From: Bacilli bacterium
Lineage (GTDB): Bacteria > Bacillota_I > Bacilli_A > ML615J-28 > CAG-313
Reading direction: 5' to 3'
Length of the DNA: 64,000 nt
NCBI GenBank assembly: GCA_017501465.1
Contig: JAFVWY010000018.1
Coordinates: forward strand, 77,829 to 141,828
The first letter of the stretch is position 1, and each line of letters begins with the position of its first letter. The position numbers and the translations under genes are program-made. A model generated the notes under the pieces. It saw only the letters and a program-made list of their open reading frames with translations, had not been told where the DNA came from and did not search any database. Positions 3,347-10,846 of the stretch are shown one piece after another.

Positions 3347-6300
3347 GTGAAAAACAAACTAATAACCATATTTGTTTTTCTATTAGGGTTATTTGCATGT
3401 TGTGCTTGTACTGAATCAGAAAAAGAAAATGATATCGTTGATACTAGTGAACAACTACAAATTTTTAGAACTGATTTAGAACTTACACAAGATCAAAAAC
3501 TTTCACAAATTAAGAAAGAACACTTAATAGAAAACAAAGGATATTTAGATAGCGATGAAGTTGTCATCGTAATTAATTTAAAAAATGCTCCTTTAATTGA
3601 AACTTATAATAAAAAATATTCAAATACGATTTCATCAGTATCTGAATATGCAAAGTCTGTTCAAGGTGTTACTGAAACATCTAAAATTAAACAAGAACAA
3701 GCTAGTATAATTGCTGAATTATTACAAAAAGGTTTAATTAAAGAAGTAGAAAATACCTATAGCACTATTATGAATGCGGTAGCTGTTAGAACAACTTATG
3801 CTAATTTTAAATTAATTAGTAAAATGAGTAATGTTTCTTCTGTTATTTTATCTGATACTTATAATTTACCAAAAAGTGATAGTGAAGCTTCTAAAGATGC
3901 CTCAGCTATTGTTAATGATGTAGATATATATGAAACAGGTATTTATAAATCTGATAGTGTTAGTTATACGGGAAAAGGTACTGCAGTTGCCGTATTAGAT
4001 TCTGGTTTTGACTGTAGTCATACTGTTTTCCAACATGAATTAGATAATGTATTAATCACATATGAAGATGTGGAAAAGGTATTATCTAGTACAAATGCAG
4101 CAAATGGTTTTTATAGAGGAACTTCGAAGTTAAAAACTACTGATGTTTATTATAATTCAAAAATTCCATTTGTTTATGATTATGCTGATAAAGACTACGA
4201 TGTATTCCCATATGATTCAAATCATGGAACACACGTAGCTGGTATTATTGGTGGTAAAGATAATTACATTACTGGTATTGCTGTTGATACACAACTTGTT
4301 TTATTAAAAGTATTCCCAGATTTAGATGCTGGTGGTGATACTGAAGATATTCTAGCAGCATTAGAAGATGCCGTTTTACTTGGTGTTGATGCTATTAATA
4401 TGTCACTTGGTCAATCTTGTGGTTTTGCAAGAGAAGTTGATGAAGTACAAATTAATGAAGTATACGATAGAATCAATGAAAGTGGTATAAGTTTAATAAC
4501 TGCTGCAAGTAATAGCTATAGTTCAGCTTATGGTGGTGAACAAGGTAATACTAATAAAGTAACTAATCCTGATTCAGGTACAGTTGGCTCACCTTCTACA
4601 TATGAAGCAGCATTATCTGTTGCTTCTATTAGTGGAACTAAGAGTAGATATATGATCGGTAATGATAGTACTGTAGTATTTTATTCTGAATCAAATGCTA
4701 TTACTGGTAAACCTAATGATTTTTATAAAGAATTATATGCTTCGCTTGGTAAGAGTGAAGATGAAACCTTTACTTTAGAATATGTTACAATCCCTGGTGT
4801 TGGTTTAGAAGTAAACTATATGAACCTAGGTGATTTATCTGGTAAGATTGCTTTAGTTAAACGTGGTGATAACACATTTGAAGAAAAAGCAAGAATTGCT
4901 AAAGATGCTGGTGCTGTTGCATGTATTATATATAACAACATCGAGGGCGAAATCCTAATGTCAATGGGTAAATCAGATCATATTCCTACTATTTCAATTT
5001 CTAAAGATTTGGGTAGTATTTTATCATCATCTAAATCAGGAACATTAGAATTTAGTATGAAGTATCAAGCTGGTCCATTTATGTCAGATTTCTCAAGTTG
5101 GGGACCAACTCCTTCCCTTGGAATTAAACCAGAAATTACAGCTCATGGTGGTAATATTACTTCATCAGTTCCTGGTGGCGGTTATGATGAAATTAGTGGT
5201 ACTTCAATGGCTACACCAAACCTTTGTGGTATTGTGGTTTTAATTAGACAATATTTAAAAGAGGAATATCCTGATTTAACTACTAAGGAAATTTCTGTAA
5301 TGGCTAATCAATTATTGATGTCTACTGCAGGTATTATTTTAAATGAAGATGGCAACCCATATTCTCCAAGAAAACAAGGTGCGGGACTTGCTAGTTTATA
5401 TAATGCGGTTAATACTGATGCTTATATTACAGTTGATGGTATTGATAAAACAAAGATTGAATTATTAGATGATCCAAACAGACTTGGTATTTATGAAATG
5501 GAATTTAATTTAGTTAACCTTTCATTACAACCTGTTAAATATAATATTTCATTAGTCGGAATGACTGAAAGTGTTGCAGTATCAAATGAAGAATTCGTGG
5601 CTGAAAGACCACAATTATTAACTGATGAATTCAATGTAGAAGTTATTAGTGGTGGAGAATTAAGTGGAACTACAATTAGAGTACAAGGTAGGGAAACTTG
5701 TAAGATTAAAGTTACTTATACATTAACACAAGAAAACAAAGATTTAATTGAAAGTCTATTCCCATTTGGTATGTATGTTGAAGGCTTTATTAAGTTAGAA
5801 GATTTAAACACTAAACCATTAAATGATAAAAAGGTTGATTTAAATGTTCCATTCTTAGCATATTATGGTGATTGGACACAAGCTCCTATTTTTGATAAAA
5901 CTTACTATGAAGTTGAATCTGAAGCTCATGATGCTTCAATCGATTATGAAGATAAGATTAAAGCAGATTATTATGCTACTACTCCATATGGATCTTACTA
6001 TTATAACTACATAATTCCTCTTGGAACTTATTTATATGATATTGATTTAAACAAGTATGATGCGATACCAGCGAAACCTGAACATATCGCAATGTCAAAT
6101 TATTTAGGAACAATTGATGGAATTAATTCTGTTTATGCAGGTCTTTTAAGAAACTGTAAAACAATGGAATTTAGTATTGTTGATAAAGTAACTGGTGAGG
6201 TAGTTTGGGAACACACCGATTATAATGCTAGAAAATCATATTATGGTACTGCTCCATATCCTTACTATGAAGACTTAATGTTGAAACCTAATGAGTTAGG

Positions 6301-10846: not shown

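Follow-up and report, generated by a model that had tools for sequence, protein, structure and literature searches.

In the DNA analysed here (the window, 64,000 nucleotides of contig JAFVWY010000018.1 from assembly GCA_017501465.1), a single uninterrupted open reading frame (ORF) at 3347-10846 encodes a protein of 2499 amino acids (aa). Judged from its sequence, this protein of an uncultured gut Bacilli bacterium joins a cell-envelope subtilase of the streptococcal type to a long BspA-type leucine-rich repeat (LRR) solenoid. Our preferred reading, to which we assign a probability of about 0.6, is that of a membrane-anchored cell-envelope proteinase (CEP) which feeds peptides to the oligopeptide importer Opp, which uses a C-terminal transmembrane (TM) helix instead of a sortase, and in which the N-terminal lipid probably tethers an I9-like prodomain. 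The protein belongs to a conserved, abundant and so far uncharacterised family with re-engineered anchoring and a fixed gene partnership with Opp, and it overturns no principle. Coordinates are window positions, and the protease gene, the features within it and the clustered genes on both sides of it lie on the forward (+) strand.

Architecture of the subtilase-LRR protein

The gene (3347..10846) starts with GTG, 7 nt downstream of a Shine-Dalgarno sequence AAGGAG (3334..3339), and specifies what is predicted to be a lipoprotein-type, TM-anchored subtilase-LRR protein with the Pfam set Peptidase_S8, PA, fn3_5, two Big_2, and LRR_5. The Peptidase S8 catalytic domain (3971..5386; residues 209-680) scores 142 bits against a cut-off of 21.8, and its catalytic motifs were found in order, with D218 in LDSG, H293 in HGTHVAG, N389 as the oxyanion residue, and S620 in GTSMA. 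Each of these four residues is invariant (120/120) when the 120 best homologues, counting the window protein, are aligned with MAFFT; this set is the basis of all counts out of 120 given below. Together with the alignment to SpyCEP and C5a peptidase, this bears out the intact S8 triad proposed in a preliminary description of this DNA that was made from the letters alone. Because all catalytic residues are strictly conserved, we take an active surface protease to be the likely product.

A PA domain (4802..5017; residues 486-557; Pfam PA 56.5 bits, cut-off 23.9) is inserted in the catalytic domain, which is followed by Fn3-like beta-sandwich domains (5420..6736; residues ~692-1130), the counterpart of the A-domain in CEPs. 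The latter were recognised by a Pfam fn3_5 match at residues 717-836 (30.7 bits, cut-off 27.6) and by modelling. Two Big_2 Ig-like domains (6824..7501; residues ~1160-1385) come next, found by Pfam and visible in the model as a beta-sandwich at 1314-1385. Among proteins of solved structure, SpyCEP/ScpC and the C5a peptidases ScpA/ScpB come closest in sequence (E 1e-57 to 1e-64). Two AlphaFold2 (AF2) models, covering residues 1-1190 and 1314-2499, were built with a 62-sequence family alignment. The first of them, with a mean predicted local distance difference test (pLDDT) score of 69.5, contains a signal helix, a prodomain-like fold, the catalytic domain with its PA insert, and three beta-sandwich domains. 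In Foldseek it aligns with ScpB, ScpA, and SpyCEP over ~1080 columns (E ~1e-46), so that the structural check suggested earlier for the protease and PA part returned an ScpA/ScpB/SpyCEP-like fold. The PA insert and the Fn3 domains that characterise the CEP/C5a-peptidase-like S8 subgroup are thus present by both Pfam and Foldseek, and the first 1130 residues make up a canonical CEP like ScpA, SpyCEP, and PrtP.

Between the N-terminus and the catalytic domain, the model places a predicted disordered tether (3410..3538; residues 22-64, with pLDDT <50 across 18-64) and an I9-like propeptide domain (3539..3856; residues ~65-170), the latter assigned from AF2 and a sub-threshold Pfam match. Residues 70-170 adopt a beta-alpha-beta-beta-alpha-beta fold with pLDDT 83-90, and the linker at 171-192 is disordered (pLDDT ~30). 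Foldseek of the same model also matches pro-subtilisin and pro-cucumisin structures. As modelled, residues 70-170 resemble an I9 propeptide, and the linker 171-192 is the likely autoprocessing region.

The BspA-type LRR_5 solenoid (7529..10021; residues ~1395-2225) was delimited by Pfam, by counting units, and by AF2. LRR_5 (PF13306) matches in eight stretches with 437 bits (E 7e-133), and the units follow the consensus 'IGxxAFxxCxxLxxIxIP' of this repeat type, in which tandem units of ~22-24 aa build a solenoid. The 2.5 kb of consecutive BspA-type repeats described earlier are therefore confirmed in extent and in kind; the number of about 40 repeats is not, as our count gives ~33-35 units. 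These are arranged in three sequence blocks that begin at ~1368, ~1686, and ~2140, each with the 'DGVLY...IP' cap motif usual in BspA. The AF2 model of residues 1314-2499 (mean pLDDT 89.7) shows a Big_2 domain, an unbroken LRR solenoid at ~1428-2223, an alpha/beta cap, a helical bundle, a linker, and a terminal helix. Modelling of the repeat region, which had also been suggested earlier, thus yields a single continuous solenoid with pLDDT >90 throughout. In the PDB, this model is matched best by the BspA-like LRR proteins 4fs7, 4h09, and 4gt6 from gut bacteria, by pneumococcal PcpA, and by T. pallidum TpLRR. The HupY/LrrG adhesin equivalog model (NF047961) is not matched (142 bits against a cut-off of 1250), its similarity being confined to LRR stretches. 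Tandem Repeats Finder detected no tandem DNA array in the LRR region, and direct repeats reach only 60-88% identity over cores of 20-50 nt; in their DNA, the units are thus old and diverged. A recently expanded or phase-variable array was rejected on account of this divergence and of the conserved lengths of the orthologues.

The size of the protein, 2499 aa, is accounted for by an ScpA/SpyCEP-like body, ~830 aa of LRR, and a tail module of ~270 aa. Characterised CEPs have roughly 1150-2150 aa. The present protein is longer, and its surplus is wholly explained by the LRR and the stalk. The preliminary description called it unusually large for its family; the clusters of its own family are 2425-2600 aa long. 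The translation is 100% identical to the NCBI entry 'MAG: leucine-rich repeat protein [Bacilli bacterium]' (MAG, metagenome-assembled genome), and the sequence is thus already public under a generic name only. A full-text literature search returned no paper on a subtilase-BspA-LRR fusion or on this protein family.

Signals at the two ends of the protein

The N-terminus reads MKNKLITIFVFLLGLFACCAC|TES and has the features of a lipoprotein signal peptide (3347..3409; residues 1-21), namely an n-region MKNK, a hydrophobic core, and a lipobox C-C-A-C21 within ...LFACCAC|T. The alignment column of C21 holds Cys in 119/120 homologues, preceded at -1 by S, A, or G in 119/119. The predicted lipidation site is C21, not C18 or C19. 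The N-terminal lipoprotein signal noticed earlier is hence retained, with the proposed 'LFAC|C' cut moved by 2-3 residues to the conserved C21. Of the homologues, 76/120 conform to a PROSITE-type lipobox pattern and 112/120 to a relaxed one; Cys frequently occupies position -3, an atypical feature for a lipobox but a consistent one in this family. A gene for Lgt (prolipoprotein diacylglyceryl transferase), which acts first in lipoprotein modification, lies within the 64-kb window at 57784-59544, and a gene for Lsp was not seen in it. The Lgt ORF, of 586 aa, also includes a HAD-family phosphatase domain, fused to the C-terminal side of Lgt.

At the other end, the solenoid is followed by a family-specific C-terminal module (10073..10684; residues ~2243-2446), which in the AF2 model consists of an alpha/beta cap and a helical bundle or stalk. 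The bundle occupies 2312-2446, with stalk helices of pLDDT 80-92, and neither Pfam nor NCBIfam has a match to the cap and stalk. When cap, stalk, and TM helix were searched together as a 274-residue module, they occurred in 53 of 1.84 billion representative proteins, which were either ~2500-aa proteins ending in the module or short fragments. The possibility that stalk and TM helix form a general anchor cassette shared with other proteins was rejected, as the module is restricted to this family.

A Pro-rich linker (2448-2462) leads into the C-terminal TM helix (10745..10813; residues 2467-2489), predicted from hydropathy and AF2. Its sequence is IFTITSISLAGIIAVLTLVVSTI, followed by the predicted cytoplasmic basic tail KMRRKNKGGK (10814..10843). 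Using a Kyte-Doolittle 19-residue mean of 1.8 as the threshold, only two segments of the protein exceed it, the N-terminus and residues ~2463-2491, and AF2 builds a long terminal helix at 2463-2494 with a disordered linker ahead of it. The hydrophobic helix and the basic tail were accordingly found where they had been described. At the strict threshold, a C-terminal TM segment is present in 102/120 homologues, and in 99 of these it is directly followed by two or more K/R. Some ten more homologues are borderline, and seven clusters are clearly without it and keep the lipobox. The topology had been called unusual, and compared with characterised LPXTG-anchored proteinases this stands; within the family, signals at both ends are the rule (102/120 plus ~10 for the helix, 119/120 for the lipobox Cys).

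A C-terminus belonging to a known sorting signal would have undermined this description, and we found none. In a pattern search, the C-terminal 90 aa of all 120 homologues proved free of LPXTG-like motifs. In hmmscan against NCBIfam, the last 99 and the last 309 residues of the protein matched no LPXTG, PEP-CTERM, GlyGly-CTERM, PGF-CTERM, or similar model at E<=10. A known C-terminal sorting signal was rejected on these grounds. Nor is the protein a member of NF040553, the family of the SGO_0316/0317 LPXTG-anchored serine peptidases (252 bits against a cut-off of 1400), and an LPXTG-like motif ahead of a C-terminal TM segment was absent from all 519 other ORFs screened. The region preceding the C-terminal helix is not conserved across the family. 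We observed 'GLPTG' or 'GLSTGE' directly before the helix in three homologues (P0008, P0009, and P0014), which could be a decayed LPXTG or chance. The Mycoplasma-related Bacilli orders RFN20 and ML615J-28 were reported to be without srtA/B, with sortases lost on the branches to Acholeplasmatales and relatives (PMC10868615).

Gene neighbourhood, family distribution and host

The source contig carries a complete oppABCDF directly upstream of the protease, with OppA (877 aa) and OppB just outside the window. The 3' part of this oligopeptide ABC importer operon (1..3118) lies inside it, comprising OppC (ending at 863, cut by the window start), OppD (872-2035), and OppF (2039-3118), identified by the Pfam set BPD_transp_1, ABC_tran, and oligo_HPY. 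Between oppF and the protease is a small ORF (3108..3329) of 73-79 aa, predicted as a 79-aa gene on the source contig, with one C-terminal TM helix and no Pfam match, which tblastn places at the same position in most related loci with 37-70% identity. Downstream, three lipoprotein genes (10848..19499; 779, 951, and 1146 aa) were recognised by their lipoboxes and synteny. Their products begin with Ig-like parts and gave nothing informative in Pfam or PDB searches, and the 779-aa and 951-aa proteins are paralogous (24% identity over 650 aa). A fourth lipoprotein of 1645 aa (19529-24466) has Flg_new (Listeria-Bacteroides) repeats. No terminator-like site was found between the cluster genes; the matches obtained were intragenic and at chance level.

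The 3' end of the protease gene is directly joined to the next gene. Its last codons, AAC AAA GGA GGT AAG TAG, contain AAAGGAGGT (10832-10840), which is a perfect Shine-Dalgarno sequence for the 779-aa lipoprotein gene, whose ATG (10848) follows at a distance of 7 nt; this lipoprotein is translationally coupled to the protease. Most related loci, among them L001, L005, L006, and L030, have a Shine-Dalgarno-like site from -27 to +8 nt of the protease stop. In some relatives the stop codon is part of the site (TAGGAGG), and in some the downstream ATG overlaps the last protease codons, which results in tails such as 'KGGKENEENN'. Among the homologues, 36/120 have a [KE]-G-[GD]-x motif within their final 14 residues, compared with 0.17% of random windows, and even clusters without the TM helix have it. 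The conserved KGGK tail is explained by a dual constraint, since the 3' codons of the protease are also the Shine-Dalgarno site of the next gene. We therefore rejected the terminal 'KGG[KR]' or '[KE]GD' as a sorting or retention motif, as it corresponds to the Shine-Dalgarno site or overlapping start of the downstream gene. This observation indicates that part of the tail that had been flagged earlier is constrained by translational coupling, not by protein sorting.

The protein search returned >120 clusters of 2425-2600 aa with 96-100% query cover, 54-79% identity, and the same Pfam architecture, and some of these clusters each gather hundreds to thousands of sequences from metagenomes. When every GTDB species was represented by a single genome, a scan gave 41 loci; they belong to gut MAGs sampled from goat, water deer, chicken, rabbit, and human hosts. 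Their NCBI labels are Bacilli, Anaeroplasma, Mollicutes, Erysipelotrichaceae, Clostridium sp. CAG:307, Candidatus Neoclostridium, and 'Clostridia', with a few clearly mislabelled bins. About 35 of the 41 loci, ranging in GC content from 28 to 59%, share the gene order oppC, oppD, oppF, small TM ORF, protease, and in many of them the 779-, 951-, and 1146-aa lipoproteins come next. OppC is 77-91% identical in the syntenic loci; identity of the protease within the family is 61-84% in the N-terminal half and 47-74% in the C-terminal half. In several loci (L003, L004, L007, and others), tblastn gave 51-77% identity to the N-terminal half of the window protease at GC contents up to 30 points apart (28% vs 58%). 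The conservation of the locus is unusually strong across a compositionally very diverse lineage.

Several other genes in the window bear on the cell wall of the host. These encode a SpoIIR homologue (53217-53678), a 1254-aa lipoprotein (36151-39915) with Flg_new, Big_2, and N-acetylmuramoyl-L-alanine amidase (Amidase_2) domains, and a beta-lactamase-fold protein (34035-34871). The gene content suggests that this low-GC, Mycoplasma-related host keeps sporulation and peptidoglycan-related functions, and it is probably not wall-less. TGA serves as the stop in 0/39 larger ORFs of the window, in 8/192 cases in low-GC relatives, and in 132/417 cases in high-GC relatives, and CGG is unused in the ~18,000 codons of the window. 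Recoding of TGA was rejected, as low-GC relatives use it rarely and high-GC relatives normally (related loci L001-L042), which is indicative of compositional bias. An 832-aa ORF just upstream of dnaB (45914-48412) combines a GdpP-type c-di-AMP phosphodiesterase (PAS, GGDEF, DHH, and DHHA1) with a complete ribosomal protein L9 (N and C domains), and may be either a gene fusion or the result of a missed stop/start.

Proposed mechanism, alternatives and known systems

In the mechanism that we propose, the protein would be exported by Sec as a prolipoprotein and lipidated at Cys21, the gene for Lgt being in the window. The C-terminal helix and its K/R tail would serve as a stop-transfer anchor whose tail stays on the cytoplasmic side, a reading favoured because the hydrophobic segment and the charged tail are present and the LPXTG motif is not. 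The helix would thereby do the job of sortase anchoring in characterised CEPs, for which we rely on the absence of the motif and on the literature on sortase loss in related orders. The distal part of a CEP would have been replaced or extended by two Ig-like domains, the ~34-unit LRR solenoid, a helical stalk, and a membrane anchor. The prodomain may be cut autocatalytically in the disordered 171-192 linker, and the lipid would then keep the prodomain (chaperone/inhibitor) tethered as the mature enzyme is held by the TM helix alone. Such a split is favoured because a folded prodomain and two disordered linkers separate the lipid site from the catalytic domain, and on the models we would rather expect autoprocessing to divide the protein and to leave the lipid on the prodomain. 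The LRR solenoid may serve as a binding arm that captures protein substrates or adheres to host or microbial surfaces, the protease would cut bound proteins to oligopeptides, and OppABCDF would import the resulting peptides, amounting to protein scavenging by a small-genome gut bacterium. We infer the nutritional role from the conserved operon with Opp.

Several observations weigh against this proposal of a TM-anchored, Opp-feeding proteinase. Inhibitor_I9 is the top Pfam match to the prodomain stretch, yet it is sub-threshold (19.3 vs 21.2 bits). The C-terminal helix appears to be dispensable in some lineages. The nearest solved relatives, ScpA and SpyCEP, are virulence proteases that cleave host factors and are not nutritional. 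The search in which no LPXTG-type ORF or SrtA homologue was found covered 938 kb of the window and related loci and is of low power. A wall-less (mollicute) host as the reason for the anchors is weakened by the SpoIIR homologue, the Amidase_2 lipoprotein, and the beta-lactamase-fold gene, and because of these genes 'no wall, hence no sortase' cannot be assumed.

The preliminary description had offered double anchoring or a stop-transfer segment as explanations. Both end signals are there, but double anchoring of the mature enzyme does not follow from them, since a folded I9-like prodomain intervenes. In a true double anchoring, the prodomain would be retained and the mature ectodomain of 2470 aa would be pinned at the Cys21 lipid and at the TM helix 2467-2489, forming an arch along the cell surface. 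Conceivably, this would agree with the conservation of both end signals together in >90% of homologues, with the 43-residue disordered tether that AF2 places after Cys21, and with the invariance of the lipobox Cys, which suggests selection on lipidation itself beyond export. Nevertheless, subtilases with I9-type prodomains generally autoprocess, the disordered linker between prodomain and catalytic domain is conserved, and the seven clusters with a lipobox and no TM helix imply that the anchors are not obligatorily paired; we regard this arrangement as doubtful. The kinship with ScpA/ScpB and SpyCEP could instead point to an adhesin-protease directed at host or competitor, like C5a peptidase or SpyCEP, in which the LRR binds host matrix or cells, specific targets are cut, and the adjacency to opp is incidental. 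BspA-type LRR proteins are known as adhesins, HupY/LrrG is a partial match, and the source is a gut MAG. We consider this rather unlikely, because the order of opp and protease is kept with tight spacing in about 35 species-level loci of GC 28-59%, which argues for functional linkage, and because an N-terminal half that is 61-84% identical resembles a housekeeping nutritional enzyme more than a fast-evolving host factor.

It is very improbable, in our view, that the C-terminal segment is a cleavable signal for an uncatalogued sorting enzyme of a sortase-, exosortase-, or rhombosortase-like kind. Its tripartite build of linker, hydrophobic helix, and basic tail would suit such a signal, and the 'GLPTG/GLSTGE' of one subclade resembles a decayed LPXTG. 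However, no motif before the helix is conserved family-wide, the 120 sequences are devoid of LPXTG-like motifs, no NCBIfam CTERM or LPXTG model matches at E<=10, and the other ORFs screened gave 0/519. Moreover, the C-terminal module is found in one family only, whereas sorting systems normally serve several substrates.

Mycoplasma-related uncultured Bacilli are common in human and animal guts. The protease family is a strong candidate for the main amino-acid route of the Mycoplasma-related gut Bacilli, and offers a concrete, predicted example of a sortase-type surface enzyme re-anchored via a lipid and a membrane helix. The protein is also a defined target for asking what these bacteria degrade in their hosts, what the LRR ligand is, and whether a lipid-tethered prodomain regulates the enzyme. 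Speculatively, and with little expectation that it is so, the whole cluster of enlarged OppA, OppBCDF, small TM protein, subtilase-LRR, and three lipoproteins might be a dedicated, physically coupled protein-foraging machine, near-essential and comparable, as a Gram-positive system directed at proteins, to the Sus and polysaccharide utilization locus surface complexes of Bacteroidota. If true, the LRR and the lipoproteins would capture host, dietary, or microbial-surface proteins, the protease would cut them at the membrane, and Opp would import the products, and amino-acid-dependent small-genome gut Bacilli could hardly do without the system.

Among known systems, sortase-less Mycoplasma-related Bacilli have surface proteins that combine a signal peptide with a C-terminal membrane anchor, phytoplasma Amp being one example. 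Amp-type proteins share with the present protein an export signal, a C-terminal TM helix, and a short cytoplasmic tail holding a large ectodomain, but there is no sequence kinship, and they are not proteases. The BspA-type LRR surface proteins (Tannerella forsythia BspA, Treponema LrrA/TpLRR, PcpA, HupY/LrrG of group B Streptococcus, and the structures 4fs7, 4h09, and 4gt6) have the same repeat type, solenoid, and surface location; in our protein, however, the LRR forms the distal part of a protease and is much longer, with ~34 units in one solenoid. The closest comparison is with the streptococcal and lactococcal CEPs (ScpA/ScpB, SpyCEP/ScpC, and PrtP), which share the S8 domain with its PA insert followed by Fn3-like domains, the surface location, and a pre-pro layout that is predicted for the present protein; among CEP-like proteins, NF040553 is the nearest NCBIfam model. 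The C-terminus of characterised CEPs is an LPXTG wall-sorting signal composed of the motif, a hydrophobic segment, and a charged tail. The differences concern the signal peptide, which is of the lipoprotein type here and of the signal peptidase I type in CEPs, the anchor, which is a TM helix here and LPXTG/sortase-dependent in CEPs, and the distal region, where two Big_2 domains, BspA-type LRRs over ~830 aa, and a stalk specific to the family are found here and B/H/W domains in CEPs. In lactococci, surface proteolysis by PrtP is functionally paired with peptide uptake by Opp, and in the present family the protease gene is itself embedded in the opp operon.

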